NCBI RefSeq assembly: GCF_000429905.1
Contig: NZ_AUCT01000030.1
Span: forward strand, 16,899 to 48,898
DNA length: 32,000 bases
DNA from: Desulfatibacillum aliphaticivorans DSM 15576
GTDB taxonomy: Bacteria; Desulfobacterota; Desulfobacteria; Desulfobacterales; Desulfatibacillaceae
Direction: 5' to 3'
Positions 393-27,001 of this stretch are shown here, piece by piece. Below the pieces are notes generated by a model, which saw only the letters and a list, made by a program, of their open reading frames with translations, searched no databases and was not told the DNA's origin. Every line of letters starts with the position of its first letter. Position 1 is the first letter of the stretch. Made by a program: the position numbers and the translations under genes.

Positions 393-3300
393 CTACGGCA
401 GCCAGGAATAGGCGCCGTAGGGGTATACATAATCGATGGTCAGGGCGTTTCCGTCGTAGGCTCTCAGGAATATCAACGCATAGAACCCTTCCTGGGTTCT
501 GACAAACTGAATCCGTTTCCCCGCGTCATTATGCACATTCCATGCGATGGTGTACGGAATGCACTCATCAAAAACTTCCTTGGAAACGCACATGGCCTCA
601 AAATCCTCTTGGGACAGCAAATAGTGGCATTCCATGCCGCCGCCGGAAACGAGGCCGAAGAGATTGCATTCCACAAAGGGGTTGTCATTCTGCACCAGAA
701 GGTCAGCCTGGCTGGCGGGATTTACTTCGCCTGTTGAAAAATCCAGGCTTTGGTCGTCAAGCAAAGCGACGGTTCGAATGGGCTCCGGCCTGTCCACGCC
801 CGCCTCGTGATTCATGACAATCAGGGCGTCGGCCAGCCCAAGGCTTCCGTCCCCGTCGCAGTCGCTAAGGGGACCGGGGGTGTATGCTTTGGACGTCCTG
901 GTTGCTATTTGCATGGCTGCGGCCGCATCAGACACGCCCACGGAGCCGTCGCCGTTAACGTCCCCCCATTGGCCGGCGACCAGGGTGATTTTCAAGGCGC
1001 CTGCGCCGTTATCCAGTGTATTCGTTCCGCCGGGCATGGAAAACAGGGCGTAGCCCGGCCCCGTGGTCCATGCGCCATGGGCGTCGGGGGCGCTTTTCAT
1101 AAATTCCGGATGATCGAGAGAGGATGTGCTGAAACACCTTCCGTCTTCCTCGGCGAAGTGAGCGCGTGCAATTTCATCAGTAAAGGCGTCCAGATAGAAG
1201 CGGGGCGCCTCCCCCCAGACAATGAGAATGGCGGTGTAGGCTTTGTCCACGGCCATGGTTTGGGTGGATTTTCCCTTGCCCAACAAGGTCCATCCGTCGC
1301 CCCACGGGACTGCGTCCACCCCGCCTTCCGTGCATTCAGCCGTGCTCCAGGTTGTGCTGCCGTACACCCGGTAGACCTCGCCGTCGGTCCAGATATCGTT
1401 TTCGTCCAACAGGTCGTCCAGATTAATGACAATGCCGGAAACCGTTCCGTCCTGGGTTACGATGGTCTGGCTCAGGGAGTCGCCTTGGATGTCCCCGATA
1501 TTTTTTACGCCGGTTCCGTCCGAATCGTAAATCGCATAAAGATACACGTCCTGGCCGACGGGCAGGCCTTCCAGGGTGTAAGCTCCGGCGCCGTCCACAT
1601 AGGCGCTGGCGAGAAGCGCGGCGGTGGAAAGGTCGTCGCCGGAATAGGCGTAAATGTATATCCTGCCTTCAGCGGATTTTCTTGCGCAATCGTCGCACGT
1701 AATTTCCCCTGTAATAACGCCGTTGGCATCCACGCGGACGTGCGTGTTGTTATCGTCCGAATAGATAGCCGCCCGCAGCGTGGAACCGCTGACGCCTCCG
1801 GAGATATTGTCCAAAACTGCCAGCGGCGCCCGGAATTCAATGAACGAGTCTCCGGCGGCGGCCTCATAAGGTCCGGTCCCGAGGTAACCGAAATACCGGG
1901 AGCAATAGGCGCGCCATGCAATCACTCCCGCGTCATTGTTACGGTCCGCATACAAGCAGGCGGAAACATTTGTGACCGGGTTGATGAAGGCAAGCCTGTA
2001 ATTGTACCCGATGGGACTTCCGTCATAGGTGGTCATGGCGGCGCACAAATTCCCGGCGCCGTCATAGGCAAGGTAGACGTCTTTCAGGTCCGTCCCGGCG
2101 GGGCTGTTTCCATCTCCCGAGGGGTCCGTAAAGACCAACGCGTCCTGGGTCCAATCGCCGGGGTCTCCGTCAATGACAATGGGCAGGGTTGGAATGGTGA
2201 AGTCTCCTCCCGGCTGGAGTTCCAGCAGATTGGTCAAGTCTTCATTGGTGAGCATGTCGCGCAGGATGCCGTTTAAAACCGGGTCTCCGCCAAAACTGCC
2301 TCCAATCAAATCATTGCTGGAATCCCATTTGGGAAGCGAATCCCGAATGTCGAGGGGATCCTTGCCCGTGTTTCCGAATAGCCTGTTCAGGTCAAAAGTC
2401 CGGGTTTCGGAGTCTTGGGAAACGCGGGTCCCCTGGATGACTCCCTGACAGGGCAGCCATTCGCCGCCGCCAAAGGTGTAGGTTCCGGTAAAACTGTCGG
2501 CGGCGACGCTTGTCGCTGCAATTTCCACATAGGGAATTGAGTCGCCGTTGGTCATGATGGGATCAGCGCCGTTCGGGTCAAAGTGATATACGTCGTCATG
2601 ATGCCAGTGGAGGAACATAAAGGGTCTTGTAAAGTTGCCTTCGGGGCTGATCCCTTTGCTCCAGGCAAGCATATACTCGGTCGTACAGGACTTGGTATCG
2701 ACGGCGACATGATATACAACTCCCGCCTCGGCCGTGAAGCTCACCACGGATTCTTCCCACCAGGGATTGTCGCTGGAGACGATTTCCGTCAGGCCGCCCA
2801 CATCTCCGCCCGTGTACACGGCCAAAACAGTCTCGCAATAGTTGTCATATAGGTTAAAAAAATAAACGCCGGCTTCGGGCGCGGTCCAGTTCCACCAGGC
2901 CGAGGCGTTCAGGGTTCCCGCTTGGGCCGGCTCACCCGCCTCGGAGGCAGCGTTGGCGTTATGGCCCCAGGCGGCGCCGGATGTTCCTGAGAGAGTCAGG
3001 GCATCTGCGAAATCGTCATTGGGTGGAGGGTCGTCCATGTCAGCGCCGAATTGACTGATATGGGAATCGCCGGATATCAATACTCCGTCCTGATCCCTTT
3101 CGACTTCCAGGCTAAGCTCCCAGCCCGGCCATTGCCGGGAGTCGGTCAGGGTCCACTTTTCCATGTTTTGGGTGTAGACGAATTCCGTGTTGTCGAGCAG
3201 CGAGTCTTTCAGGTCCTGAATGGCCTTGTCGCCCATTTCCAGCAAGCGTTTATCTTCGTCCGAGCCTATAAAAAGAAATTCGTCGGCCTGATCGTCAACC

Positions 3301-4181
3301 CCGCCTTCGTACTCCGCAAGAATAAAGGCGTGGGCTTCCTGGGCCGCGTTCAAGCCCGCCAGAAATGACGTCTTGGCCCGGGCGAGGATCGCTTCTCCAT
3401 CCGCCGAAACCGCGCCCGCGGGAAGCAACTCCCCAAAATTTTGACAGGCGTCCACCACGTCCCTTTGAAACTGAAAAATTCCGGCGTTGCTGAGGGCAAC
3501 CAAAGCCCGAATGTCCACATCCATATTGTAGGCGGAGGCGATCAGCAGCACGGACTTCATCAGGTTCAGCCCCGCCTTGAAGGCCAGGACGTCTCCATAG
3601 TCCATTTCGCAGCCCAGGCCCGTGGGATCGCCCAATTCATCAGGCGTTAACTCGACCACAAGAGAGGAGTCAATGGCATCCAAGTCCGCCAAGGAAGCGT
3701 CGATCGTTCCCACAAAGGCGTCATGGAGGAAAAGGCGAAGATCCTCCCCGCCTGGGGCGCCGCGGGGCAAAAACACGCCTTCCTCCGTTTCAACGCCGGG
3801 GGACAGGCTGTAGGGAATTTCACCCGCCTCATCCTCGCTGTTGCGATACAGGCCAAAGGCTTCGGCCAAATCATGCAGAGTTTCCAACCCGCTCCCGCTC
3901 CCCTGGTCCAGCAGGAACGACGCCAGCCTGGACCCGCTGAGAAACAGCCGGGCTTCCTGGTTTGTGGAGTCCGCGGCGACGGCAGCCTCGAACTTTTCGT
4001 GAGCCGCCAGAACTTTGGAATACTCCAGGTCTCCCTGATTGAAAAACAGCGCCCGCCCCTCTTCCGTTAAAGCCTGGGAATTCCCGGAAGCTTCGGCCCA
4101 TGCGCAAAAAGGATTCGCCAAAATGAGTAACATAATGAATAAATTGGCTATTGTGTTGCACAAAACTCGATTCTCAATCAT
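393..4181 (-). CDS. Large secreted multidomain protein (1262 aa) with dockerin/EF-hand-like Ca-binding repeats; function unknown
   Basis: Dominant ORF of the region with an ATG start at 4181. The N-terminus looks like a signal peptide (LFIMLLILANPFCAWAEA). Two dockerin-like repeats, GDVNGDGSVGVSD and DCDGDGSLGLAD, are encoded around 800-961. Other modules are NDDFADA..GEPAQAG..WWNWTAP..LAVYTG and a carboxypeptidase-regulatory-like stretch (YTLEGLPVGQDVYLYAIYDSDG). Confidence 0.8.
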   Translation of the reverse strand: MIENRVLCNTIANLFIMLLILANPFCAWAEASGNSQALTEEGRALFFNQGDLEYSKVLAAHEKFEAAVAADSTNQEARLFLSGSRLASFLLDQGSGSGLETLHDLAEAFGLYRNSEDEAGEIPYSLSPGVETEEGVFLPRGAPGGEDLRLFLHDAFVGTIDASLADLDAIDSSLVVELTPDELGDPTGLGCEMDYGDVLAFKAGLNLMKSVLLIASAYNMDVDIRALVALSNAGIFQFQRDVVDACQNFGELLPAGAVSADGEAILARAKTSFLAGLNAAQEAHAFILAEYEGGVDDQADEFLFIGSDEDKRLLEMGDKAIQDLKDSLLDNTEFVYTQNMEKWTLTDSRQWPGWELSLEVERDQDGVLISGDSHISQFGADMDDPPPNDDFADALTLSGTSGAAWGHNANAASEAGEPAQAGTLNASAWWNWTAPEAGVYFFNLYDNYCETVLAVYTGGDVGGLTEIVSSDNPWWEESVVSFTAEAGVVYHVAVDTKSCTTEYMLAWSKGISPEGNFTRPFMFLHWHHDDVYHFDPNGADPIMTNGDSIPYVEIAATSVAADSFTGTYTFGGGEWLPCQGVIQGTRVSQDSETRTFDLNRLFGNTGKDPLDIRDSLPKWDSSNDLIGGSFGGDPVLNGILRDMLTNEDLTNLLELQPGGDFTIPTLPIVIDGDPGDWTQDALVFTDPSGDGNSPAGTDLKDVYLAYDGAGNLCAAMTTYDGSPIGYNYRLAFINPVTNVSACLYADRNNDAGVIAWRAYCSRYFGYLGTGPYEAAAGDSFIEFRAPLAVLDNISGGVSGSTLRAAIYSDDNNTHVRVDANGVITGEITCDDCARKSAEGRIYIYAYSGDDLSTAALLASAYVDGAGAYTLEGLPVGQDVYLYAIYDSDGTGVKNIGDIQGDSLSQTIVTQDGTVSGIVINLDDLLDENDIWTDGEVYRVYGSTTWSTAECTEGGVDAVPWGDGWTLLGKGKSTQTMAVDKAYTAILIVWGEAPRFYLDAFTDEIARAHFAEEDGRCFSTSSLDHPEFMKSAPDAHGAWTTGPGYALFSMPGGTNTLDNGAGALKITLVAGQWGDVNGDGSVGVSDAAAAMQIATRTSKAYTPGPLSDCDGDGSLGLADALIVMNHEAGVDRPEPIRTVALLDDQSLDFSTGEVNPASQADLLVQNDNPFVECNLFGLVSGGGMECHYLLSQEDFEAMCVSKEVFDECIPYTIAWNVHNDAGKRIQFVRTQEGFYALIFLRAYDGNALTIDYVYPYGAYSWLP

Positions 4182-5215: not shown

Positions 5216-5533
5216 CTAACGATGGCGCCCGTTATACTTTTTCCGGGCGATGTTTGCACTTGCCCGCTGCTGCATGTGATGCAAAATGGCCCGCTCTCTA
5301 TGGTCCAGGCGCCCGTCGCAAAGGAAAGCTCTTTTGGTTTGCCTGATCACCCTTTGCTGATGAGCCAACGCCCTGGTTTCACCGGGCGTCAACTGCCCGG
5401 ACTTCACTCCCTGGTGAATTCTGCCCATTTGTCTTGCCTGGACTTTTCCCACCGGACCGGCGCAAGCGTTTCCTGCGGCCAGCGCGATAGCGCATACCAT
5501 GGCCAGCCCCGTCATTTTCCATTTTCTCTGCAT
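5216..5533 (-). CDS. Small secreted basic protein (105 aa), function unknown
   Basis: ATG at 5533 is preceded by GAGAGGTG. The signal peptide is MTGLAMVCAIALAAGNACAGP. The mature part is rich in R/Q/H with an LTxxE.. helix-type repeat (SGQLTPGETRAL). Confidence 0.6.
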   Translation of the reverse strand: MQRKWKMTGLAMVCAIALAAGNACAGPVGKVQARQMGRIHQGVKSGQLTPGETRALAHQQRVIRQTKRAFLCDGRLDHRERAILHHMQQRASANIARKKYNGRHR

Positions 5534-5756
5534 GGTTCACCTCTCAGTATTTCAGTTTTGGAACGAAATCTCTGGGATTGAATGCACTCGATTTTTTTCA
5601 AAGGCCGCGGCCGCGCTTCCTGCCTTGCACAGCTAACCGGTTTTGACTGATATGACGAGGGGAAAGGAAAAAAAGTCGACAAAAAAGTTTTCAGAGAATG
5701 TGAGGCCATTTTCTTTGAATGAATAAGCAAATGCGGCTGCATAACCCTACTCCGCA

Positions 5757-6395
5757 CTATGGCGGTAAACTGCACTGCCTGAGCCGCCCGGAACCTTTTG
5801 GGCTGCATCCATCCTCTGTGGTGAACAACAACCTTTCTTGAGTCAAAAAATCAAACACAACTTCAAAGCCGTCATCATTGCATAACCTCCTGGGCGTCCC
5901 CCAACCAGGGTGGCCCAGGCAAGGCTTTTTTTGCCTGGGCGCGCAAGCGCAAAAGGCGCGACCTGGAAAGATAGTCGAAATCAGGCGTGGCAGGCGGGCG
6001 GATGGAAATTTTTGAAGCCCTGCCTTTCCCGGCATTGCCGGTTCAAGAAAAACTTTGGCTTCCATAAGCGTTTCCTCAAGCCTTCTGTGCTTCGCACTCA
6101 GGCAGTAAACTGCACTGCCTGAGCCACCCGGAACCTTTTGGGCTGCATCCATCCTCTGTGGTGAACAACAACCTTTCTTGGGTCAAAAAAATCAAATACA
6201 ACTTCAAAGCCGTCATCATTCCATAACAACCTGGGCGCCCCCCAACCAGGGCGCCCCCCAACCAGGGCGCCCCAGGAAACTCGTTTTCCTGGGCGCGCAT
6301 AGACGCCGTTTTGTGAAGCGGGGGGAGACCATTTCATCGAAGCGCAATAGGCGCGACCGGAGGGGATAATCAAGGTCTGAGTTGACCGGCGGGCG
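5757..6395 (+). repeat. Two head-to-tail units (B1 5757-6096, B2 6097-~6395) of the ~340-bp structured repeat family (locus B)
   Basis: H1 hairpins at 5757-5783 (degenerate) and 6097-6123 (perfect CTCAGGCAGT-N7-ACTGCCTGAG) give a period of 340 nt. H2 hairpins lie at 5914-5939 and 6271-6293. The region sits between two minus-strand genes and has no frame-conserved ORF. Confidence 0.85.
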
Positions 6396-6433
6396 AAGAG
6401 CGTTGTTTAAGGCCCTATTTTCAAACAAGAGTC

Positions 6434-7609
6434 TTAAACGACCTGTTTTCCTCGCACCATGACGCCAACGGGTTGCTGCAGGCTGGCGGGCAGGTCCTGG
6501 GGCGAGCCCTTGACCATAACCAGGGTTGCGGCCTTGCCGGGAGCGAGGGTTCCCAGATCTTTCAGCCCCAACAGGTCAGCGCCGTTACCGGCGGCCGCCT
6601 TGACGACTTCCTCCAGACTAAACCCCGCCTTCATAAACAAAGCCATCTCACGCCATAGGGATCTTCCGTGATGCACGCCGGTGCTGCCTGCATCCGTGCC
6701 CAGGGCCAGGGTGACGCCCAGTTCCCGGGCCTGGGAGATGAGCTCCATCTGGGCTTCCAGGTTTTTCAGGGCGCCGGCCTTTTTCGGGTCGTCGTCCGGG
6801 ATGGATTGGGCGTAGCCTTCCATGGTGACGGCCGTGGGGACCCACACGGTTCCATGTTCGGCCATGCGTTTCAGGTTGTCCCGGCCCATAAAAAAGCCAT
6901 GCTCCACGGACTGGCATCCGGCTTCCACGGCGATACGCACGGGCTCGTCCCCATTGGCGTGGATCATGATTGCCAGGCCCAGCTTCTTTGCCGCCTGCAC
7001 AGCCTGGGATAGTTCCTGCCGGGAAAACTGGGGCGGAGTTTGCTTGCCGAACTCGATCAGGCTGTTGAGTCCCGAGCCCACCACCTTGATGAAATCCGGG
7101 TTTTGGCCGTCTTCGGCGATGGCCCGGGCCAGGGTTTGGCCCTCTTTAGGGAAACGCCCCACCAGCTTGCCGTAGCGTTTGTCCGCCCTCCACGCCTTGC
7201 CCGCGCATTTGGCGATGACCGGAATGTCTGCATCCTCCCTGGCAAAACGAAGGGCGTGGCCGCCCCAATCGCCTCCGTCGCGAATGGAAGTCACGCCGCT
7301 TTTCAAAGATTCCTCAAGGTGTCTTTGGATGACCGGCGCGGATTTTTCGTAGGGAACGAAAAGCTGGGTTTCCCGGATTTCCATGTCCGTGGTTCCAGAC
7401 ATAACCAGATGCACGTGGGCGTCCGTCAGACCCGGCAGGATGGTGCAATCGGAATAGTCCAGGATGGAGGCGGATTGGGCTGTCTCAGGACCGGCGGGCG
7501 CCAGGCTTTTGATCACGCCGTTTTCAATGGTTAAAATAATATTTTCAGCGGCCGGAGCGCTTGTTCCATCGATTATCCAGCCGGCTTTTATTTTTAAAAA
7601 GGAGTTCAT
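6434..7609 (-). CDS. Metal-dependent amidohydrolase family protein
   Basis: ORF of about 391 aa. Motifs include GLTDAHVHL (the HxH metal site), IMIHANGDE and SVEHG, and LGTDAGS near the C-terminus, which together are typical of the amidohydrolase superfamily. The ORF track starts at a TTG (7624). I prefer ATG 7609, which is preceded by GGGAAGAA. Confidence 0.8.
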   Translation of the reverse strand: MNSFLKIKAGWIIDGTSAPAAENIILTIENGVIKSLAPAGPETAQSASILDYSDCTILPGLTDAHVHLVMSGTTDMEIRETQLFVPYEKSAPVIQRHLEESLKSGVTSIRDGGDWGGHALRFAREDADIPVIAKCAGKAWRADKRYGKLVGRFPKEGQTLARAIAEDGQNPDFIKVVGSGLNSLIEFGKQTPPQFSRQELSQAVQAAKKLGLAIMIHANGDEPVRIAVEAGCQSVEHGFFMGRDNLKRMAEHGTVWVPTAVTMEGYAQSIPDDDPKKAGALKNLEAQMELISQARELGVTLALGTDAGSTGVHHGRSLWREMALFMKAGFSLEEVVKAAAGNGADLLGLKDLGTLAPGKAATLVMVKGSPQDLPASLQQPVGVMVRGKQVV

Positions 7610-7927
7610 TGATTCTTCCCGCAAAATATAAAAGGATGTTCAGCCCCGGTCCTGGGACGGCTTTTGCCGCCCGGGCCATGAATTTATTTTTTTTCACGCC
7701 CCTGCCGATAAGTCAATATATGGACAAGTTGTGATTGTAAATCCATTGCTTCTTGTGATACTGTGCAGGTTAGCTTTTCAAACGCAACATGCTGTTTTCA
7801 ATCTCATATTCTTATCGCTGTTAAGCTGCAATTCCTATCCCATTCAATCGCAGTGGATTCTATCGGCCGCAAATGATTCCGGGTGGAGGACTGGCGCTGC
7901 TTTGCACATCAACGACAGGAGCAGTGT

Positions 7928-10900
7928 ATGAAGATTTCGCGCAGGGGGTTTTTCAAGACCGCTGGAGCTGGGGCGGCGGCGGGCGTTCTGACCGGAAAGG
8001 CTGACAAGTCTCTTGCGGCCCTGCCGACTCGGGAAGACCCTTTTGCCAATGCGGTTTCCACGACCTCCGTATGCCCTTTCTGCGCCGTGGGCTGCGGCTC
8101 GATCATCAAGGCCCTGGACGGAAAAGTCGTGCAGATCGAAGGAGACCCGGAGCATCCCATCAACCAGGGGGCCTTGTGCTCCAAGGGCCTGGCGTTTTCG
8201 CAAACGGTCAACAGCCCGGGCAGGCTGCAAAAGGTTATGTATCGGGCGCCCGGCAGTGATCATTGGGAGGAGAAATCCTGGGAATGGGCCTTGCCCCGCA
8301 TGGCCGCGCTGATCAAGAAGACGCGGGACGCCTCCTTTGTGCAGGAAAAGGACGGCCGCACGGTCAACCGGACCGAAGGCCTTGCCTGCCTGGGCGGCGC
8401 GGCCCTGGATAATGAGGAGTGCTACCTTTACGCCAAGCTGGCCCGGGCTTTGGGAGTCGTCTACCTGGAGCATCAGGCGCGCATCTGACACAGCGCCACC
8501 GTCGCCAGTCTGGCGGCAACGTTTGGAAGAGGCGCCATGACCAACCATTGGATCGACATGGCCAACGCCGACGTGGTTATGGTCTGCGGCTCCAATGTGG
8601 TGGAAAACCATCCCATAGCCAGCCGGTGGCTGCAAAAAGCCCGGGAGCGAGGGGCCATAATCCTTTCTGTGGATCCCCGATACACCCGAACATCCTCTTT
8701 CGCCGACCATTATTGCCGTCTGCGAAGCGGCACGGACATCGCCTTTGTGGGCGGCATGATCCGCTACGCCCTGGAGCACAACCGAATTCATCGCGAATAC
8801 GTGGTCAACTATACCAACGCTTCGTTTATTATCTCGCCCGACTTTGAATTCCACGAAGGCTTGTTTTCAGGCTACGACCAGGAAGCCCGAAGCTACGACA
8901 AGTCCTCCTGGGCCTACGAATGCGACGCCTCGGGCGCTCCCCTCCGGGACGAAACCCTGACCCATGAACGCTGCGTGTTCCAGTTGCTGAAAAAGCATTT
9001 TGACCGGTACGATCCCCAGACCGTTTGCAGCATCACCGGCGCTCCGCAGGACGCCTACGAAAAGATTTGCGACCTGTACACATCGTCAGGCCAGGCGGGA
9101 AAAGCCGGAACCTGGCTGTACGCCATGGGCGCCACCCAAAGCACCCACGGCGCCCAGAACATCCGCACATACGCCATGCTGCAGCTTTTGCTGGGCAATA
9201 TCGGCGTGGCTGGCGGGGGCGTAAACGCCTTGCGGGGGGAGTCCAACGTTCAGGGCTCCACGGACATGGCTTTGCTCTTCCATATTCTGCCGGGCTACCT
9301 GAAAAACCCCAACGCGTCCGACCAAAGCCTGGAGCAATACCTCAAGCGATGCACGCCCGTCTCAAACGATCCAAAATCCGCCAACTGGTGGGGCAACACC
9401 CCCAAGTACATGGTTTCGCTGCTCAAGGCCTGGTTTGGAGATCACGCAACCCCGGAGAACGATTTCGCCTTTGACTGGCTGCCCAGGCACAGCGTGAACA
9501 GCTCCTATATTCCCTTGTTTGAAGCCATGCATAAGGGAGACGTCCAGGGCCTGATTTTGTTCGGGCAGAACCCGGCTGTCAGCGGCCCCCATGCTGGCAG
9601 GGAGCGGGAAGCGCTTTCCCGGCTGAAATGGATGATCGCCGTGGATCTTTTCGAGACTGAAACCGCCGGGTTCTGGAAGCGGCCGGGCGTGAACGCAAAG
9701 GACATCGACACCGAGGTTTTTCTACTGCCTGCGGCCGCCTCCGTAGAAAAGGAAGGCAGCATCACCAACAGCGGCCGCTGGGCCCAATGGCGGTATAAGG
9801 CAGTCGAGCCGCCCGGGGACGCCCGTCCCGACCTCTGGGTGCTGAATTCCCTGTTTAACGCGGTAAGAAAGGAATACCAGGCCGGCGGAGTCTTCCCGGA
9901 GCCCATTGTGCACTTGAATTGGGATTACGCCTTGGAAGGCGATCCCCACCATGAGCCCGATCCCCACATAGTCGCCAAAGAGGTGAACGGATATTTCACC
10001 CGCGAGACCACGGTCAAGGGCAAAACCTTTGCCAAGGGGGATCAGGTTCCGTCCTTCGCCTATCTGACGGACGACGGCGCCACTTGTTCGGGCAACTGGC
10101 TTTATTGCAACGCCTACACCGGCCCGGAAAAATCAGACAACCGCATGGCCCGCAGGGGAAGGGATGACGCCCCCAGCAACATCGGCCTGTTTCCCGAGTG
10201 GACCTGGTGCTGGCCGGTCAACCGGCGCATTCTATACAACCGGGCCTCCGTGGACCTGGAAGGCAGGCCCTGGAACCCGGAGCGCTTCGTTATCAGATGG
10301 AATCCCGAAGAATCCTCCTGGGAGGGGGACGTCCCGGACGGGGGATGGCCTCCGGGGTCAAAGCATCCCTTTATCATGCAGCCGGACGGCCACGGCCAGC
10401 TTTGGGCCAGATTTTTGGCCGACGGCCCCCTGCCCGAGCATTACGAGCCCTTTGAAAGCCCCATTGTCAACCCCATGTCCCGCAGCCAAAACAACCCGGC
10501 GGTTAAAATCTGGCGCGAAAAGCCGGGCGATAAGAACCCATTCGGAGATCGGGAGAAATTTCCCATCGTGGCCACGACCTATCGCATGACCGAGCATTGG
10601 CTGGGCGGCGCCATGACCCGCAACACGCCCTGGCTGGCGGAGCTGGTTCCCAACGTGTTTGCGGAAATCGGGACAGAGCTTGCGGAAGAGCACGGAATTT
10701 CCAACGGCGATAAAATCATTATAGAGTCGGCCCGGGGCGAAATCGAGGTCTACGCCCTGGTGAGCTCCCGCATTCCCTCCTTCAAGCTGGAAGGCCGCAC
10801 CGTGCATCAGGCGGGGCTGGTCTGGCATTTCGGATACCAGGGGATCGCCAAGGGGGACAGCGCCAACATGCTCACCCCCAACGTGGGCGACGCCAACACC

Positions 10901-10963: not shown

Positions 10964-11751
10964 AAGCATTGCTCATGGATACCACGCTTTGCATAGCCTG
11001 CCGGGGATGCCAGGTGGCCTGCAAGCAGTGGAACCGTCTGGACGCCGAGCAAACCTCCTTTTTTCACGGGGGCGGCTACCAGAATCCGGCGCACCGCTCG
11101 ACCCGGACCTGGAACCTCATCACCTTCAATGAAGTGGAAAACGGCCATGGCATGGACTGGGTGTTCGGCAGAAGGCAGTGCAACCATTGCATAGAACCCG
11201 CCTGCGTGACCGCATGCCCTGTCGGAGCCTTGACGAAAACCGCCGAAGGCCCGGTGCATTACGATGAATCCCGGTGCTTCGGCTGCCGGTACTGCCAGGT
11301 GGTCTGCCCGTTTAACGCCCCGCGTTTTGAATGGAACGATCCCAACCCGGAAATCCGCAAATGCACCATGTGCGCGGACCGCATCGCCATGGGCTCGGAA
11401 CCGGCTTGCTCCCAGTCGTGCACAACCAAGGCTTTGATCTTCGGCGATCGTGAAGAACTGCTGTCCCTGGCCAAAGAGCGCATTGCCAAAAGCCCCAACC
11501 GGTATGTCTCCCATATTTACGGAGAAAAGGAAGCGGGCGGCGCCTGCGTTTTGTATCTGGCCAAGGCGCCGTTCGAAAAAATGGGCTTTGCAACCGGACT
11601 TCCGGACAAACCCTTTTCCAGCGAGGTCAAAACCGCCATGGCCGCCATCCCCTTCGCCATCACCGGCAGCGCCCTGGCCTTGGGCGCTTTATACTGGGTT
11701 ATCAATCGCAGGCTGGAATCATACAAGGAAAGCTCCGAGGACGAATCATGA
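10960..11751 (+). CDS. fdhB: Formate dehydrogenase iron-sulfur (beta) subunit, 4x[4Fe-4S] ferredoxin-type with C-terminal membrane anchor
   Basis: ATGA start/stop overlap with fdhA, and AAAGGAG lies upstream. Four Cys clusters are present (CIACRGCQVAC, CNHCIEPACVTACP, CFGCRYCQVVCP, CTMCADR..C..SC). The C-terminal hydrophobic helix is AMAAIPFAITGSALALGALYWVI. Confidence 0.85.
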   Translation: MKALLMDTTLCIACRGCQVACKQWNRLDAEQTSFFHGGGYQNPAHRSTRTWNLITFNEVENGHGMDWVFGRRQCNHCIEPACVTACPVGALTKTAEGPVHYDESRCFGCRYCQVVCPFNAPRFEWNDPNPEIRKCTMCADRIAMGSEPACSQSCTTKALIFGDREELLSLAKERIAKSPNRYVSHIYGEKEAGGACVLYLAKAPFEKMGFATGLPDKPFSSEVKTAMAAIPFAITGSALALGALYWVINRRLESYKESSEDES

Positions 11752-13124: not shown

Positions 13125-13916
13125 ATGCACCGATTTGACGAAGATATTGCAGTCTCCCCCAAAGAGGGTTCCACATATGCAGCCAAGGTGACGGACAACT
13201 GGTCCATCATGGGCATTCCCAACGGCGGATACCTGATGGCCCTGCTGACCAACGCCATGCTCCAGCAAAGCAAAAACGAAAACATCCTGGTGGTGACCGC
13301 CACCTATCTTTCCAAACTAAAACCCGGACCTGCGGATCTTGTTGTGGAGAACTTCGCATCGTCCCTGAACCTGGACAGGTATCAAACCCGGTTGATCCAG
13401 GACGGCCGGGAATGCATTCGCGCCATGGGAACCTTCCGGCCCTCCAACATGGACCGGAGCGAAGACCGGTGCGAAAAGCAGGCGCCCGAACTGGCGCCCG
13501 TGGAGCAATGCGTCCAGGTCCCGGTCATGCCCAACTTCACCTTGTTTGACAACATGGACGAATACCTGGACCCGGATTCAGCGGGCTGGATGTCGGGCAA
13601 TCTGTCGGACGTCTCAGAGATAAAAGGCTGGATCAAATTCAAGGAGGACCGGCCTTTTGACCATCTGTCCGTGCTGCTTATGGCGGACTCATTTCCTCCT
13701 CCCATCATGGCGACCAAAGGCATGGCCGGATGGGTGCCCACGGTGGAGCTTTCCGTGAACGTGTACGAGATTCCCGCCACCCCATGGCTGAAATGCCGGT
13801 TTCGCACCGACTTCATGAGCCGGGGCTTTTTGCAGGAAGACGGAGAGCTTTGGGACGAAAACGGTACCCTCATCGCCGTCTCCCGCCAAGTGGCCCAATT
13901 CAAACGCGCCAAATAG
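13125..13916 (+). CDS. Acyl-CoA thioesterase-like (TesB/4HBT_3 hot-dog fold family) protein
   Basis: 263-aa ORF with an ATG start. The N-terminal region WSIMGIPNGGYLMALL resembles the thioesterase-like superfamily. This call is from memory of the family pattern only. Confidence 0.6.
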   Translation: MHRFDEDIAVSPKEGSTYAAKVTDNWSIMGIPNGGYLMALLTNAMLQQSKNENILVVTATYLSKLKPGPADLVVENFASSLNLDRYQTRLIQDGRECIRAMGTFRPSNMDRSEDRCEKQAPELAPVEQCVQVPVMPNFTLFDNMDEYLDPDSAGWMSGNLSDVSEIKGWIKFKEDRPFDHLSVLLMADSFPPPIMATKGMAGWVPTVELSVNVYEIPATPWLKCRFRTDFMSRGFLQEDGELWDENGTLIAVSRQVAQFKRAK

Positions 13917-13927
13917 GAATTTATTGT

Positions 13928-14981
13928 GGGCAGCCCAGGTGCATGCCTTCCCTGGGCTGCCCCGAACTATCCGTTTCGGGCTTCAACCATCTGTTTTGGT
14001 GACCAACACTCTTCCTCAGAAAAAAAATCAAACACAACTTCAAAGCCGTCATCATTCCATAACAACCTGTGCGCCCCCCAACCAGGGTGGCCCAGGCAAA
14101 TCTTTTTTTTGCCTGGGCGCGTAAGCGCAAAAGGCGCGACCCGTGGGGATAATCGGATTCTGGTATGGTCGGCGGGCGGTTGGTTTTTCAGGAATCCCAG
14201 CCTCTTTCGGCATTGCCGGTTAAAAAAAAACGAAGGTTTCCATAAGCATTTCCTCAAGCCTTTTGTGCTGCGCACTCAGGCAGTAAACTGCACTGCCTGA
14301 GCCACCCGGAACTTTTTAGGCCGCAATCATCATTTTTGGTGACCAACTATCTTCATTGGATAAAAGGCCAAATATTGGGGCGTCACAACCGTCTTCACAC
14401 CATAACAACCTGGGCGCCCCCCAACCAGGGCGGCCCAGGCAAGGCTTTTTTTGCCTGGGCGCGTAAGCGCAAAAGGCGCGACCAGAGAAAATAATCAAGG
14501 CCTGGCATGGTCGGCGGGCGATCGGATATACATGAAACCGGCCTATTCAGGCGACACTGGTTCAGGAAAAATATTGGTTTCTGTAATCGCTTCCTCACGC
14601 CTTCTGTGCTTTGCACTCAGGCAGTAAACTACACTGCCTGAGCCACCCGAAACCTTTTGGGCTGCAACTATTTGTTTTGGTGACCAACACTCTTCATTAG
14701 ATAAAAAGCCAAATGCGGCGTCACAACCGTCATCACTCCATAACAACCTGTGCGCCCCCCAACCAGGGTGGCCCAGGCAAGGCTTTTTTTGCCTGGGCGC
14801 GTCAGCGCAAAAGGCGCGGCCTGGAAAGATAGTCGAAATCGGGCGTGGCAGGCGGGCGGTTGACTTTGCAGTAATCCCTGCTTTATCGGCCGACAGCAAT
14901 TCAGGAAAGGCACTGGTTTCTGTAATCGCTTCCTCACGCCTTCTGTGCTTTGCACTCAGGCAGTAAACGACACTGCCTGAG
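13928..14981 (+). repeat. Head-to-tail array (locus C) of three ~340-bp structured repeat units (13928-14274, 14275-14615, 14616-14954) closed by a terminal H1 hairpin (14955-14981)
   Basis: Perfect 10-bp-stem hairpins CTCAGGCAGT-N7-ACTGCCTGAG lie at 14275-14301, 14616-14642 and 14955-14981, giving periods of 341 and 339 nt. H2 hairpins CCCAGGCAA(A)-loop-(T)TTGCCTGGG lie at 14091-14117, 14434-14459 and 14772-14797. A conserved core TGGTGACCAAC...CCATAACAACCTGNGCGCCCCCCAACCAGGG is shared. Indels between units break every reading frame. Confidence 0.9.
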
Positions 14982-15043
14982 CCGCCCACTGCTTTTTAGG
15001 CGATACTATTTGCTGCGGAGAGCCTGTCTAAGCAGTTAAGTCA

Positions 15044-17142: not shown

Positions 17143-17214
17143 GCGCTCAAACGCCAAACGTCGATTTGAACCCATTACCTCCACATTTTCTGATAGGCGG
17201 GCGCCGAAAAAACT

Positions 17215-17342
17215 CCCTCCCCCTTGACGGGGGAGGGCTGGGGTGGGGGTGACGTTCCTTCGGCGAGGAAACCTCGCAACTACGGCGCGGGGACCGCGCC
17301 ACTACTCCCCCCATCCTGTCCTTCCCCCTCCAGGGGGGAAGG
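17215..17342. repeat. Cluster of G/C-homopolymer-rich hairpins downstream of modF-like gene (REP-like element or terminator region)
   Basis: The hairpins are CCCTCCCCC-ttgac-GGGGGAGGG (17215-17237), GGCGCGG-gga-CCGCGCC (17284-17300) and CCTTCCCCC-tccag-GGGGGAAGG (17320-17342). The overlapping 68-aa ORF (17224-17430) is low-complexity and not credible. Confidence 0.4.
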
Positions 17343-17638
17343 GACCATGACTCATCTGCTTCTTAACAAACTTAGTTCATCGACTTCCCTGTCTCCTGAA
17401 TTTCAGGCAATTTTCAACCTCATAGGATAAACTGAATATCAATATTCCTCTCGACCGTCATATGGGCCTGACTTGGATTTTTATTGCTATTTGCCTTTGC
17501 ATCTGGCAGATTGCCATTCAAAAATAGGGCGGCCGTCCAATGCCGGGCGGGTGATTACCTTAAAAGATTTTCCGACAAATAGACCCGTTGCAAGCGGGCC
17601 GGACAACCAGGCGGAATCCGGCAGGGGTGTGATCGACA

Positions 17639-20857: not shown

Positions 20858-23800
20858 TTAGCTTTCCAAGGCTTTTCTGACCTGTTCGGCCAGCTTGTTT
20901 TGGGAAAACGGTTTTTCCAGAAAGTGCACATCCTTCTCCAGGACGCCGTGCCGGGCGATAAGGTCGGCCGTGTACCCGGACATAAACAAGACTTTCAGGG
21001 ACGGGTGGCGGGATTTGAGCTCCTCGGCCAAATCCTTGCCGTTCATGCCGGGCATGATGACATCCGTAATGAGCAATTGGATGCCGTCCTGGAACTCGTC
21101 AACCAGATTAAGGGCCTTCTGGGGAGAGGAAGCAGTCAGCACGCGGTAACCGGATCTTTCCAACATGCTTTTAGCCATGGAAATGATGGCTTTTTCATCC
21201 TCAACCAGCAGTACGGTTTCCCCTTTTCCCTCAAGGGGTTCAGCCGCCTGCAAAGCCTCTGACGCAGTCTCCGGCGAGCCATGCCTGGGCAGATAGATTT
21301 TAAACAAGGCGCCTTTCCCCGGCTCGCTTTCCACCAAAACGGCGCCATCATTTTGTTTGACGATGCCGTATATGGTGGACAGTCCCAGACCGGTCCCCCG
21401 GTCCGGCTTCTTGGTCGTGAAAAAGGGTTCGAAAATATTGGCCATGGTTTCCCGGTCCATGCCGCAGCCGTTATCTTTCACGCTCAAAAGCACATAATCG
21501 CCGGGTTTGAGATCCGGGGTGGGAATGCAGGCCTCTGGTGAAACTATTTCATTATGGACGCTTATGCATATTTCCCCGCCGCTGGAAATAGCGTCCCTGG
21601 CGTTGACGCACAGGTTGGCGAGCAACTGATCCAATTGGGACGGGTCCATGCGCACAAACCATGTCTCGCTCCCGGGTTTCCAGATCATCCGGATGTCCTC
21701 CCCAATCAGCCTGCGCAGCATTTTCAGCATGCCTTCCAAGGTTTCATTCAGATCCAAAACCCTGGGGGCGATGGTTTGTTTTCGCGCAAAAGCCAGCAAC
21801 TGCCGGGTGACTTCCGAGGATCTCATGGCGGCGTCCAGGATTTCCCTGAAGCTTTCATAAAAGGGATGGGCAGGGGGCATGCCGTCCAAAGCCAGCTCCG
21901 AGTATCCGATGATCACATTCAACATGTTGTTGAAATCATGAGCCACTCCGCCCGCCAACCTGCCCACGGACTCCATTTTTTGCGCTTGCGTCAATTGGGC
22001 ATGGAGTTGTTCCCGCTCGGCCTCGGCCTGCTTGCGCTCGGTAATATTGCGCGTAATGGTTGCCAAGTCGGTCATGTCGCCGGTGGCAATGTCTTCGGTA
22101 TGGAAAAGGTCGTAAAGAACGGGAATCGCTTCACCCGTTTTGAAATGGCGAAAGCGAAACTCCCCCGCCCATCGTCCATCCCGCATAACGGCGGGAAGAA
22201 TGGTGTTCCGGAGGTACGGCAAGTCATCAGGCAGGAAGTAATCTTCGATCCTGGTCTGCGCGACCGCCTCTTCCCCATCCAGCCCCACCATCGCCTGCCC
22301 GGCTGGATTCACGAAGTAAGCCGCCTGGTCCGTATCCGCCACGCCAATGAAATCCTGACTGCGTTTGATAATATTAGCCAGGACCTGATTGCGCCGTTCC
22401 AAATGCTTGCGTTTGGTGATGTCTATGGCAATTTCAAAGCGGACGTCCCTGCCATCCGGCCAACTGATGATGCGATCCGCTATCGCGTAATGCCGGTCAA
22501 CATGCTTGTTATGGAATTCCCAGTGATGGGAAGCGGGTTTTTGCTTCAATATAATATCGTTGGTGCAGAAAGGGCATGGCGAATCCAGGTTTTGTATGAT
22601 TTTGTAACATTTTGCGCCGAGGCAATCGGGCGGCAGCATTCGCTGGAAATAGCTGTTGACATACAACAACTCATGGGTTGCCGGGTCGGAGATGTAGATT
22701 ACCTCGTCAATGCTGTTGAATATGGCGAGCAGTTGCTCCCGTTCTTCCCGCAGCTTTTTTTCGGCCAGTTTATGTTCGGTGAGATCAATATCAATGCAGA
22801 ATAACTCGGGCTCGCGCCCCGGCAGGCGGACCAAGGCGTGGGATGAATAGACCTGGATGGGCGAACCGTCCTTGCGCATCAATTCCAGCTCGGACGGCGG
22901 GATCGCCTCTCCGGTTTCGGCCATTTGGCGCATCTCCGTTTGCACGGCTTCGCGCATGGCGGGAGGAATGATCAAGTCTATCAGGTTTTGGCCAAGGGCC
23001 TCTTCCTCGGTGTAGCCGTAAAAGGTTTCCGCGGCATGGTTCCAATAGCTTACCGCGCCGTCCAGGGCGTACCCCTGGACAGCCACCGAGGTCACATTCC
23101 GCAGCATCTCCTTGAAACGCATTTCGCTGGCTTTCAGCGCTTCTTCGGCTTGCTTTGCTTCGGTCACATCGCGGGCAATGCCGACATAACCCGTGACTTT
23201 CCCGGACTCATCCCTGTTGGGGGACCCCTTGGACATGTGCCACCGCCAGGACCCGTCGTGATGCCGGACCCGATATTCCAGACCGCCTTGTTTGCCGCCG
23301 TTCATCACCGTTTTTTCCAGGAAGGCGCGGCACAGGTGGACGTCCTCAGGGTGGACATAAGGCTCAAAGGACTTTCCCACGGCTCGTTCCGCCGGTTCGC
23401 CCAGGAACTCCAGCCAATTTGGGGAAACATAGGTAAACCGGCCTTCGGCGGAAAGGGCGTATACAATGTCGTTGGCATTCTCCACGAAAGAACGGAACAA
23501 CTGCTCGCTTTGACGCAAGGCCTCGCTGGTCCGCGCCAGTTTGATATGGGCGTAGGACATGCGGGAGATAAGATTGATGAGATTGCAGTAAAAGGTCATC
23601 ACCTGATCCACCGTTTTACGCGACCAGCGAGGGACGGATAGATAGGCCTTAAGATATGCCTCCTCGTCGAATCCATAACGGCGGGCCTGTTCCCGGAAGG
23701 CCGCGACGTCGGGCGTTTCATCCTCAAAGAAAAACTGACCGAGGAAGAGGTTGCCGGCGTGTCTCCCGCCAATGACAATCGGGGTCGCCATATCCCACAT

Positions 23801-25156
23801 GTTGTTCTTGCATTTATACAATTTGAAGGTTCCCGGCTCCACGGTGGATGCGAGAAGCGTGTCGCTTTCACGGCAATTTAAGGCGGTTTCGGGATGAACC
23901 CGGTGGAATTTGGTGCAGACATCCTGCCAGCCTGTCCCGACAAGGACATTTCCCTCCAGGTCGATAATGCCCACTCCGATGTCCGTCAATGCGTGAAAAT
24001 CGTCCATCAGGGATTGTATTTGATCAACGTCCAAAACGTCGGCGAGATTCAAACGCCCAATATCGCCTTCCGGATCAAGGAGGGCGTTCAGCTTGGTCCG
24101 CACCCTGCTTTCACTCTCCCGCAGGGCCTCTTCGGCTTTCTTGCGTTCCGTAATGTCGGCGGCGACGCTTAAAATGGCGGGCTTGCCGTCCCACTCAATG
24201 AATCTTGCCAGCACCTCCAGGGGAAAAGTGGATCCGTCCTTTCGGTGGTGAAGGACTTCAAAGCGCGCTTCCCCCTTCTCCCGGATTTTCCGGTAACGCT
24301 CCGGCAGCATGGCCCGGGTCTCCGGAGCGTCCAGGTTATGCAAATCCGTGTTCAAAAACTCTTCCTCGTCAGCGTAGCCGTGCAAGGTGTATGTGGCTTG
24401 GTTTCCATAATGAAACCGGCCCTTGAAGTCATGGATGGTTATGGAGGCCGGAGCCAGGTCCAGCATGCGCCCCAACAGGGCTATTCGTTTTTCAGCCTGT
24501 TGTTGGGCCGCCATTTTGTCCAGGGCGAACCCTATGTCATTGGCAAGCTCCCTGAACAGGACTTGCTCCTCCTGATTGCCGGCCAGTTCCTCTGGAACGG
24601 AGACGGACAACACGCCGTGGATGCGATCCTTGTACCCCAAACGGCAAGTAAAGACCGCCCATCCCCCGTACTCCCGCGTCAGCGGACACTCGGGACAATC
24701 CCGCCGGGCGTCCCGGACCACCGTCACCTCATCAGCCAGGAAAGATTGCCGCACACAGCGGGGATATGCACCCTGCATCAGTTGCCGCTCCAGCTGCAAA
24801 AAGCCGCCGCTGGCCCGGCCGGATTTAACGGCCGTGACCTGATGGGTTTGGGAGTCCGCCAGGGCGATCCAGGCGTTCTGGTAGCTTGGACCGGCCGTGA
24901 GTTGAATGCAGGCCTTTTCTATCAGGCTCAGGGGAGTCTCCTCGGAAACCAAAAGTTTGTTCACGCTGCGAATGGTCAGCAAAACATTCTTGATGTGCGC
25001 TTCCCGGGCCTCCGCCTCCGCCAGACGCACCACCAGGGTGTGATTATTCCCCACAATGGCGTCCACCTGACCGTCCCGAACGGCCTGCAGGGCGTCCTCA
25101 GCGCGTTTTAGCCTCTTTTGCAGTTCCTCATAGGACGGCGGCGTCTTGAACGTCAT
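20858..25156 (-). CDS. Hybrid sensor histidine kinase with a multi-sensor N-terminus (GAF, about 5 or more PAS, PocR-like domain), HisKA, HATPase_c and a C-terminal receiver
   Basis: H-box GGVAHDFNNMLNVIIGYSE. The ATPase N/G boxes are NLCVNARDA, DNGCGMD and GTGLGLS. The receiver is VLLVEDE...LLITDVIMPGMNG...KVLFMSGY. Several PAS-type modules are present (repeated ITERKxAEEAL linkers). ATG 25156 is preceded by GGAGAG; the track start 25171 is a TTG. Confidence 0.9.
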   Translation of the reverse strand: MTFKTPPSYEELQKRLKRAEDALQAVRDGQVDAIVGNNHTLVVRLAEAEAREAHIKNVLLTIRSVNKLLVSEETPLSLIEKACIQLTAGPSYQNAWIALADSQTHQVTAVKSGRASGGFLQLERQLMQGAYPRCVRQSFLADEVTVVRDARRDCPECPLTREYGGWAVFTCRLGYKDRIHGVLSVSVPEELAGNQEEQVLFRELANDIGFALDKMAAQQQAEKRIALLGRMLDLAPASITIHDFKGRFHYGNQATYTLHGYADEEEFLNTDLHNLDAPETRAMLPERYRKIREKGEARFEVLHHRKDGSTFPLEVLARFIEWDGKPAILSVAADITERKKAEEALRESESRVRTKLNALLDPEGDIGRLNLADVLDVDQIQSLMDDFHALTDIGVGIIDLEGNVLVGTGWQDVCTKFHRVHPETALNCRESDTLLASTVEPGTFKLYKCKNNMWDMATPIVIGGRHAGNLFLGQFFFEDETPDVAAFREQARRYGFDEEAYLKAYLSVPRWSRKTVDQVMTFYCNLINLISRMSYAHIKLARTSEALRQSEQLFRSFVENANDIVYALSAEGRFTYVSPNWLEFLGEPAERAVGKSFEPYVHPEDVHLCRAFLEKTVMNGGKQGGLEYRVRHHDGSWRWHMSKGSPNRDESGKVTGYVGIARDVTEAKQAEEALKASEMRFKEMLRNVTSVAVQGYALDGAVSYWNHAAETFYGYTEEEALGQNLIDLIIPPAMREAVQTEMRQMAETGEAIPPSELELMRKDGSPIQVYSSHALVRLPGREPELFCIDIDLTEHKLAEKKLREEREQLLAIFNSIDEVIYISDPATHELLYVNSYFQRMLPPDCLGAKCYKIIQNLDSPCPFCTNDIILKQKPASHHWEFHNKHVDRHYAIADRIISWPDGRDVRFEIAIDITKRKHLERRNQVLANIIKRSQDFIGVADTDQAAYFVNPAGQAMVGLDGEEAVAQTRIEDYFLPDDLPYLRNTILPAVMRDGRWAGEFRFRHFKTGEAIPVLYDLFHTEDIATGDMTDLATITRNITERKQAEAEREQLHAQLTQAQKMESVGRLAGGVAHDFNNMLNVIIGYSELALDGMPPAHPFYESFREILDAAMRSSEVTRQLLAFARKQTIAPRVLDLNETLEGMLKMLRRLIGEDIRMIWKPGSETWFVRMDPSQLDQLLANLCVNARDAISSGGEICISVHNEIVSPEACIPTPDLKPGDYVLLSVKDNGCGMDRETMANIFEPFFTTKKPDRGTGLGLSTIYGIVKQNDGAVLVESEPGKGALFKIYLPRHGSPETASEALQAAEPLEGKGETVLLVEDEKAIISMAKSMLERSGYRVLTASSPQKALNLVDEFQDGIQLLITDVIMPGMNGKDLAEELKSRHPSLKVLFMSGYTADLIARHGVLEKDVHFLEKPFSQNKLAEQVRKALES

Positions 25157-25460
25157 CGTGCTTCTCTCCAAACAGGGCTAGGATTTTTTCCTTATCGCTC
25201 AAGTTGCCGTAAACCAGGGATTCCATGCCGTGAGCCTCGATCTCCAGGGCGGGCGTAAGATATATTCCTTTTTCCAGGGCGACTTCAGGGGTTGCAACAA
25301 CATCCACGATGGCTACTTTCAAATTCCATTGTGATATATTTTCCTGGATCATTTTGATGTTTTGCAAAGCGATACGGGAGTTGGGGGCGTCTCCGGCAAT
25401 GTAAAGCACGGCCCGGCAATCCGGCAGGCCGGAGCCGCAATTCTGGTCATGAGCCGTCAT
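25128..25460 (-). CDS. kaiB: KaiB-family protein (thioredoxin-like fold clock/timer component)
   Basis: LYIAGDAPNSRIALQNIK...LKVAIVDVVATPEVALEKGIYLTPAL...GNLSDKEKIL parallels Synechococcus KaiB (LYVAGNTPNS...ATPTL...GDLSDREKVL, from memory). ATG 25460 is preceded by AGGGAGG. The gene overlaps the kaiC stop by 14 nt. Confidence 0.85.
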   Translation of the reverse strand: MTAHDQNCGSGLPDCRAVLYIAGDAPNSRIALQNIKMIQENISQWNLKVAIVDVVATPEVALEKGIYLTPALEIEAHGMESLVYGNLSDKEKILALFGEKHDDVQDAAVL

Positions 25461-26916: not shown

Positions 26917-27001
26917 CACTTCCTTTATTCCGATCTTGCGGAATAGAGAGGGATCATTCTTCCTGGGCCGCAAGCACAGTGGGTGAAATCAACAGCGGCA
27001 G

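Follow-up and report, generated by a model that had tools for sequence, protein, structure and literature searches.

A repeat of about 340 nt at three intergenic loci

The window analyzed here, a stretch of 32,000 nt from Desulfatibacillum aliphaticivorans DSM 15576, contains, around its repeated DNA, chromosomal genes of ordinary kinds, namely those for an amidohydrolase, a molybdopterin oxidoreductase operon, a 4HBT thioesterase, an HD protein, an ABC ATPase, and a KaiBC-histidine kinase cluster. Among the neighboring genes in the window, none encodes a transposase, a reverse transcriptase, or a Cas protein. Positions 5750 to 6430 are filled by two head-to-tail units (B1 and B2) of a noncoding repeat of ~340 nt, individual units of which measure 338 to 343 nt. 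The family has three loci in the window, all of them intergenic: array B, formed by these two units; array C; and a diverged copy, A, which adjoins the downstream side of a gene of 1,262 aa (393-4181, - strand). One unit consists of a palindrome with its head on the - strand (hairpin H1), ~130 nt, a palindrome with its head on the + strand (H2), and ~170 nt. The arrays are alternating palindromes and two conserved linkers, which bear further small hairpins. The features in the window are as follows.

196-345, + strand: copy A, diverged and partial, with the 3' arm of H1, linker 1 with a C-rich-loop hairpin, then an unrelated hairpin (nhmmer E=3e-47)
5750-6089, + strand: unit B1 of array B (nhmmer E=4e-110)
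5757-5783, - strand: H1 edge copy of B1, decayed, head GGGCGG on the - strand
5914-5939, + strand: H2 of B1, CCCAGGCAA/TTGCCTGGG, head AGGGTGG
5937-5963, + strand: H3 region of B1, GGGCGCG...CGCGACC, with an alternative short hairpin GCGC-GCAA-GCGC
6090-6430, + strand: unit B2 of array B, with a 16-nt duplication and a 41-nt insertion; its end falls shortly past CCGGCGGGCG (6386-6395)
6097-6123, - strand: H1 of B2, reverse complement GGGTGG-CTCAGGCAGTG-cagtt-TACTGCCTGAG
6235-6266, + strand: perfect tandem 16-nt duplication, within the C-rich-loop hairpin region of B2
6271-6293, + strand: H2 of B2, CCCAGGAAA/TTTCCTGGG, identical to 7813-7835 of locus L005 in D. alkenivorans DSM 16219
6291-6358, + strand: H3 region of B2, insertion included
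6300-6340, + strand: 41-nt insertion, B2 only, within the H3 loop and the loop of the short GCGC-GNNA-GCGC hairpin
13926-15023, + strand: array C, 3.2 units (TRF period 338 to 341, 3.0 copies, 79% matches)
13926-14267, 14268-14608, and 14609-14947, + strand: units C1, C2, and C3 of array C
13928-13962, - strand: variant palindrome at the H1 position of C1, reverse complement GGGGCAG-CCCAGG...CCTGGG-CTGCCC; the thioesterase stop codon lies 12 nt before it
14091-14117, + strand: H2 of C1; further H2 copies of array C at 14434-14459 and 14772-14797
14275-14301, - strand: H1 of C2; further H1 copies of array C at 14616-14642 and 14955-14981
14948-15023, + strand: terminal H1 of array C plus ~45 nt

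Conserved unpaired motifs (AAAAGGCGCG, CGGCGGGCG, and a C-rich loop) lie in the linkers, together with a GNNA-capped mini-hairpin. A module of ~110 nt, comprising the GGGYRG head, H2, H3 or the GNNA mini-hairpin, AAAAGGCGCGRCC, ~30 nt, and CGGCGGGCG, often stands alone. Array ends differ: they fall past CGGCGGGCG in array B and in L005a, and 45 to 60 nt beyond H1 in array C and in L005b.

Copies in related genomes

The sample comprised ~150 kb from three genomes and contains 8 loci and at least 19 hairpins. Window DNA shares 95.7 to 97.6% identity with strain AK-01 and ~92% with D. alkenivorans DSM 16219, and the next sampled relative stands at 77%; at the protein level, the window oxidoreductase is 95% identical to its DSM 16219 counterpart, and CbbQ is identical to that of AK-01 (CP001322.1). 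Diverged copies of the repeat (~70 to 80% identity) were detected in both strains.

L005 6516-6775 and 7807-8065: DSM 16219 copies, one after each of two duplicated thioesterase genes
L009 9550-9800, 11280-11356, and 15726-16104: AK-01 copies
L010 9184-9781 and 11305-11386: AK-01 copies

No copy of the repeat was found in an 83%-identical relative over the 22 kb surrounding its orthologous operon (L007), in 21 kb of AK-01 (L011), or in the 4.8 kb past the left end of the window (L016). Searches of JGI metagenome contigs with the core and H3 motifs, of viral contigs, and of plasmids (blastn) likewise returned no copy. A pattern scan of genome contigs (GCCTGAGCC-N{100,130}-CCCCCAACCAGGG) gave three matches that we took as chance, two in apparent coding sequence (L001 and L002) and the third in a Streptomyces contig. 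As far as these sequence searches reach, the ~340-nt repeat is seen only in Desulfatibacillum among the DNA searched. Look-ups of proteins encoded near arrays B and C (the Mo-oxidoreductase, the HD protein, an Fe4S4 protein, and a 105-aa protein) yielded nothing but Logan contigs of the window strain, with no identical AK-01 orthologue among them. The Logan short-read assembly of the window strain (SRR896231) is interrupted within both array B and array C, as expected of multicopy DNA.

H1 and H2 as inverted copies of one palindrome

When a profile built from the H2 module was used as the query, the - strand of H1 gave matches at five sites (nhmmer, E=1.6e-4 to 2e-2). When the two hairpins were aligned, they shared the pattern GGGYRGCYCWGGCA...TGCCWGRGYGC, both reading GGGYRG-CYCWGGCA...TGCCWGRG-YGC. 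Judged by this alignment, H1 is the H2 palindrome in inverted orientation, with a GGGYRG head and a stem of 9 to 10 bp, a homology that the preliminary description of the locus had overlooked. H1 spans 27 nt with a stem of 10 to 11 bp and H2 spans 21 to 27 nt with a stem of 9 to 10 bp, dimensions that agree with the definition of REPs as imperfect palindromes of 20 to 40 bp that can fold into a stem-loop. The odd hairpins at the H1 position of C1 and of L005 (6516-6549) are palindromes of the same kind.

The GGGYRG head is conserved in both hairpin orientations. Across 19 hairpins, it reads GGGTGG in 9, GGGCGG in 5, GGGTAG in 2, GGGCGC in 2, and GGTTGG in 1; its final four bases are thus GTGG (9), GCGG (5), GTAG (2), GCGC (2), and TTGG (1). 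A hairpin scan of 6 loci detected no free-standing head-tagged palindromes, all of them lying within larger conserved modules. In the sampled DNA, the H3 region always trails H2, and H1 always stands in its own conserved context. Because the palindromes never occur alone there, the repeated unit is larger than classical REPs.

Compensatory change in the hairpin stems

The preliminary description had taken the variation between B1 and B2 as the mark of selection on a folded single strand and had called for a structural alignment of all copies. We aligned the H2 region of 13 copies drawn from three genomes. All 13 keep the 9-bp H2 core paired, with no core pair broken. Three stem positions vary: at pair 14/34, 10 copies have AU and 3 have UA; at pair 17/31, 8 have CG, 3 have AU, and 2 have GC; and at pair 19/29, 10 have AU, 1 has CG, and 1 has GC. 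Over the whole H2 alignment, 97.7% of cells pair, and 10 cells have changed on both sides, against a mean of 2.5 in shuffled alignments (0 of 500 shuffles reached 10); when the register of the alignment was slid, 28 to 60% of cells paired. Loops vary freely (ggcttttt, ctcgt, cccgc, cttgt, agcagtatc, agccgtatc, and gca). These comparisons support a constraint that keeps the two arms of H2 complementary, that is, one that would preserve the hairpin. This part of the earlier claim stands, given the exchanges of AU with UA, of CG with AU and GC, and of AU with CG or GC; compensatory variation of this kind can stem from gene conversion or template switching at the DNA level as well as from selection on RNA.

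For the other two hairpins, the structural alignment was less informative than for H2. H1 is invariant among the 7 intact copies and therefore gives no covariation signal. H3 (GGGCGCG/CGCGACC) is 91.5% paired across eight distinct variants, and it is kept in the diverged AK-01 copies, including X1; two double changes occur at one of its pairs, along with five cells that form G-U pairs on the + strand, and 19 to 24 of 500 shuffles reached the observed values. Support for an H3 hairpin, as the preliminary description had proposed it, is thus weaker than that for H2. The 5' arm of H3 can alternatively make a 4-bp hairpin capped by GCAA, GUAA, GUCA, or GCCA, for which AK-01 has the counterparts UUGC-UUUA-GCAG, UUGC-AAA-GCAA, and GGCC-GGA-GGCC. 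H3 and this mini-hairpin are mutually exclusive foldings.

Neither strand stood out as the folded one. A further candidate helix, GCGCGRCC/GGYCGGC, has a covarying position compatible with the - strand only; RNAalifold energies were similar for the + and - strands; and whole units folded 0.8 to 3.1 SD below shuffled sequences (z from -0.8 to -3.1), the strands being alike. A helix CCNG/CNGG downstream of H3 was considered and dropped, as its variable position pairs in 5 of 11 copies by eye.

Differences between units B1 and B2

The three differences on which the preliminary description was built are real. In the H2 stem, CCCAGGCAA-ggcttttt-TTGCCTGGG of B1 corresponds to CCCAGGAAA-ctcgt-TTTCCTGGG of B2, with C>A and G>T at mutually pairing positions and unrelated loops. 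The 16-nt sequence GCGCCCCCCAACCAGG is duplicated at 6235-6250 and 6251-6266 (TRF period 16, 2.9 copies, 96% matches). The 41-nt insertion, bounded by 6299/6300 and 6339/6340, does lie inside the H3 loop of B2; it is absent from every other aligned copy, and blast detected no second copy of it in any sampled DNA. Their interpretation changes, however. The H2 allele of B2, loop included, is the hairpin found at L005 7813-7835 of DSM 16219, so that the difference between B1 and B2 reflects two subfamilies placed side by side rather than a double mutation that arose in the array. The duplication and the insertion, each seen a single time, are ordinary products of slippage and indel formation and are no evidence of selection. 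The edge copy of H1 at 5757-5783 (CTATGGCGGTAAACTGCACTGCCTGAG) has two mismatches and one G-T pair, and its inner 6 bp do need the wobble; the argument for a + strand RNA or + single strand that had been drawn from it is not supported, as it depends on that single G-T pair in a decayed copy.

Genomic setting, strain variation, and IS insertion

All 8 loci adjoin the 3' end of a gene, 6 between unidirectional and 2 between convergent genes, with none between divergent genes. The repeat stands in either orientation relative to the adjoining gene. No gene for RAYT or another Y1 transposase (Y1_Tnp) was detected among the called genes of the sampled loci (~150 kb).

The window strain carries 3.2 units at the orthologous thioesterase-HD locus, where DSM 16219 has one unit, a second thioesterase copy, and a partial unit. 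The 4HBT thioesterase genes of DSM 16219 are arranged in tandem (L005 5707-6498 and 6900-7691) with a repeat after each; the window has a single gene (13125-13916). The repeats may have mediated the duplication of the thioesterase gene in DSM 16219.

AK-01 carries three copies of an IS4-family element (transposase P0121; terminal repeat CTTAAGTCAACGGCATTA). Two of the three have 9-bp target duplications on either side, GGGTAGCCC and GGGTGGCCC, located exactly at the head of H2-type hairpins.

L009 9773-9781 and 11283-11291: IS4 site at a hairpin head, AK-01
L010 ~9772-9790 and 11290-11305: IS4 site at a hairpin head, AK-01

The third copy (L011) lies within a PocR-like gene, with the duplication ACCCTGACCC. 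The position of the target duplications suggests that the element targets the repeat in a sequence-specific manner.

Gene order differs around some of these sites. In the 83%-identical relative, SIR2 and amidohydrolase genes are separated by a gap of 19 nt (L007 7058-9013). In AK-01 (L010 8392-9150), a repeat cluster and the IS come after SIR2, and other genes lie beyond them. Array B of the window adjoins the amidohydrolase gene, and the repeat clusters coincide with the break in synteny.

Tests for coding capacity and RNA genes

Ten open reading frames (ORFs) that cross the repeat, searched as a composite query against 5.8 billion proteins, had no homologue at E<=0.001. Rfam 15 gave no match in the window at the gathering score, and in 5500-6500, the only matches were noise (E >=2.5 under a threshold of E<=10). 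A scan restricted to sigma-70-like sites returned 0 in array B and 1 in array C, outside the units, with no excess over shuffled sequences; terminator-like sites were at or under the shuffle expectation.

Several specific candidates were rejected. The T-run of H2 was considered as a terminator, and it sits in the loop and is missing from most variants. For a sigma-54 promoter, the spacing in the TGG-N-GC sequence upstream of H1 was inconsistent (9 or 11 nt, by eye). The arrays have no unique spacers and no RT, Cas, or integrase genes nearby, and whole units repeat; on these grounds, CRISPR, integron attC, retron, and DGR elements were dismissed.

Comparison with known repeat families

The survey of REP families by Di Nocera et al. 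(2013, PMC3733652) describes families in which heads stand beside stems of 6 to 13 bp, subfamilies arise through complementary stem changes, G-T pairs are frequent, and some families accept GYRG or GTGG head variants. In that survey, REP dimers are inverted and 20 to 100 bp apart, clusters are dimers reiterated in tandem with flanking DNA, and sites downstream of genes are favored. IS insertion into REPs is documented in PMC1525189. The Desulfatibacillum repeat resembles the REP/BIME clusters of enterobacteria such as E. coli, and GTAG-tagged REP families, in being made of imperfect palindromes in extragenic DNA, each with a conserved unpaired head beside its stem; in the alternation of palindromes and conserved linkers with tandem reiteration, the mosaic organization of BIMEs that is seen in arrays B and C; in having subfamilies marked by complementary stem changes and G-T pairs; and in lying downstream of genes, between unidirectional or convergent ORFs, and serving as IS targets. 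Compensatory stem variation of the kind noted in the preliminary description is the rule in repeats of the REP/BIME type (PMC3733652).

The differences are also clear. The Desulfatibacillum linkers, of ~130 and ~170 nt, are conserved and structured, compared with tens of nucleotides in REP/BIME elements. PMC3733652 lists AK-01 among the genomes with GTAG REPs, and PMC5217627 reports an intergenic motif CCTAC(N)19TAGGT for AK-01. We found in AK-01 a second palindrome, GTAG-GTTGGGTT...AACCCAAC-CTAC, which forms an inverted pair at L008 5640-5700 (= L010 9415-9475) and is absent from the window. It is probably the motif of PMC5217627 and perhaps the GTAG REP family for which PMC3733652 lists AK-01. 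Because this second palindrome probably fits the reported families better, we treat the ~340-nt family as undescribed. Unlike REPs, the ~340-nt family has no singleton palindromes in the sample, its heads end mostly in GTGG or GCGG, and no RAYT gene accompanies it in the sampled DNA. REPs are dispersed over a genome in tens to hundreds of copies; the ~150 kb sampled here has 8 loci.

REPINs offer a second comparison. They have short spacers and a total length of ~70 to 110 nt. Bertels and Rainey reportedly found in 2011 that REPINs are mobilized by RAYT transposases. The Desulfatibacillum repeat is like REPINs in having two inverted copies of one palindrome per unit and in forming a lineage-specific multicopy family; it differs in that its unit is longer, the sampled DNA holds no hairpin-flanked RAYT gene, and its mobility is putative. 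The NIME of Neisseria are RS units flanked by dRS3 inverted repeats, with repeat bodies of 50 to 150 nt or more, and form strain-variable arrays that act as recombination sites; the dRS3 repeat is 20 bp long and is used by phage integrases. Both systems are intergenic, strain-variable arrays of the form hairpin-body-hairpin-body-hairpin, but the Desulfatibacillum repeat has no sequence relation to NIME, and no link to a phage integrase was seen. BOX of Streptococcus pneumoniae, with its modular A-B-C structure, and ERIC/IRU of enterobacteria, of ~127 nt, are structured and noncoding and vary in module number. They share with the Desulfatibacillum repeat an intergenic location, conserved secondary structure, and the lack of coding capacity; they differ in taxon and sequence, and neither BOX nor ERIC is built from a palindrome and its inverted copy.

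Interpretation

Taking the architecture, the stem variation, and the genomic setting together, we consider it fairly probable that the region is a lineage-specific palindromic intergenic mosaic repeat, the Desulfatibacillum counterpart of REP/BIME clusters. The basic piece is a single palindrome with a conserved G-rich GGGYRG head, a stem of 9 to 10 bp, and a free loop; compensatory change keeps the stems complementary, and loops and array borders drift. Units or submodules, chiefly H2 with the following ~110 nt, would have spread to new intergenic sites downstream of genes, and unequal recombination or slippage would have amplified them locally into tandem arrays. The hairpin would form in single-stranded nucleic acid, where it might be recognized by a candidate transposase or recombinase, or it might serve as the 3'-end hairpin of read-through transcripts; alternatively, template switching within the palindrome or gene conversion might restore complementarity mechanically. 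Set against the REP/BIME reading are the palindromes that are not found alone in the sampled DNA, the GTAG head in only 2 of 19 hairpins, and the lack of a RAYT/Y1 gene in ~150 kb; in addition, the conserved unpaired linker motifs and the GNNA mini-hairpin suit a structured RNA better than a passive spacer.

A structured-RNA family is the main rival. The unit, or else the module of ~110 nt that runs from H2 to CGGCGGGCG, would encode a structured ncRNA (a multicopy sRNA or a cis element), the arrays would be tandem RNA genes, and selection on RNA folding would keep the hairpins. Besides the compensatory change in H2, the double changes of H3 with its five + strand G-U cells, the mini-hairpin after H2 that varies yet persists (AK-01 replacements included), the strong conservation of the unpaired motifs, and the solitary occurrence of the module at several sites in either orientation to neighboring genes are all consistent with this explanation. 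We nonetheless judge it unlikely: promoter- or terminator-like signal does not rise above shuffles, the T-run is confined to the H2 loop of some copies, no Rfam family matches, and arrays are cut at arbitrary positions of the unit and vary in copy number between strains. The modest fold z-scores, the similar RNAalifold energies of the two strands, and the helix that suits the - strand only also weigh against it. It likewise seems doubtful, though conceivable, that the ~110-nt module, alone or in the 340-nt unit, is something new: either a multicopy structured RNA, such as a dispersed cis-acting 3'-UTR or riboregulatory element with the C-rich loop in the neighboring module, or the substrate for an undescribed system of single-strand transposition, one that recognizes the GGGYRG-headed hairpin without a classical RAYT.

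Quite unlikely, in our estimation, is that the arrays are functionless tandem duplications, a selfish or neutral satellite, in which template switching and gene conversion between copies produced the complementarity without selection. The identity of the B2 hairpin, even in its loop, with one at another strain's locus indicates that whole hairpins are copied between units, H2 variants group according to genome or locus, continuing slippage is visible in the 16-nt duplication and the 41-nt insertion, and the edge copy at 5757-5783 has decayed, all of which fit such an origin. Such an origin sits poorly with at least 6 compensatory states at three stem positions and 0 broken core pairs in 13 copies with free loops, with a G-rich head conserved in both orientations, and with the persistence of copies in three genomes whose shared regions have ~92 to 97% DNA identity. 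Finally, a repetitive protein encoded by the long - strand ORFs (5757-6152 and 14543-14989) is extremely improbable, for although ORFs of 131 and 148 aa span unit borders, the periods of 338 to 343 nt are not multiples of three, copies differ in frame through indels, the repeat ORFs lack homologues at E<=0.001, and public assemblies call no gene there except one 44-aa ORF.

Read as REP/BIME-like mosaic repeats, these arrays provide a clear example in a sulfate-reducing deltaproteobacterium of the Desulfobacterota, a group barely described for such elements, with a unit that is unusually large and internally structured. They mark gene duplication, synteny breaks, IS insertion, and breaks in short-read assemblies and are therefore relevant to genome plasticity, assembly, and annotation in alkane degraders. 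The conserved hairpin head is a concrete motif for finding a cognate transposase or binding protein. The finding alone does not open a long-standing question.

Other features of the window

Outside the repeat family, G/C-rich hairpins (CTCCCTCCCCC-ttgac-GGGGGAGGG, GGCGCGGggaCCGCGCC, and CCTTCCCCCTccaGGGGGGAAGG) lie at 17195-17350, between the ABC ATPase and Na/Ca exchanger genes. This stretch may be another multicopy element, as a Logan contig of the same strain (L015) ends there. At 20858-26973, the KaiB-KaiC pair adjoins a PocR/PAS hybrid histidine kinase of 1,437 aa; in AK-01 (L008 14177-16015), KaiC is a fragment of 168 aa, with AbiC-like and zinc-ribbon genes in its place. A 22-nt tandem repeat (28667-28709; TRF, 2.0 copies, 81% matches) lies within a gene encoding a VWA-domain protein of 930 aa.
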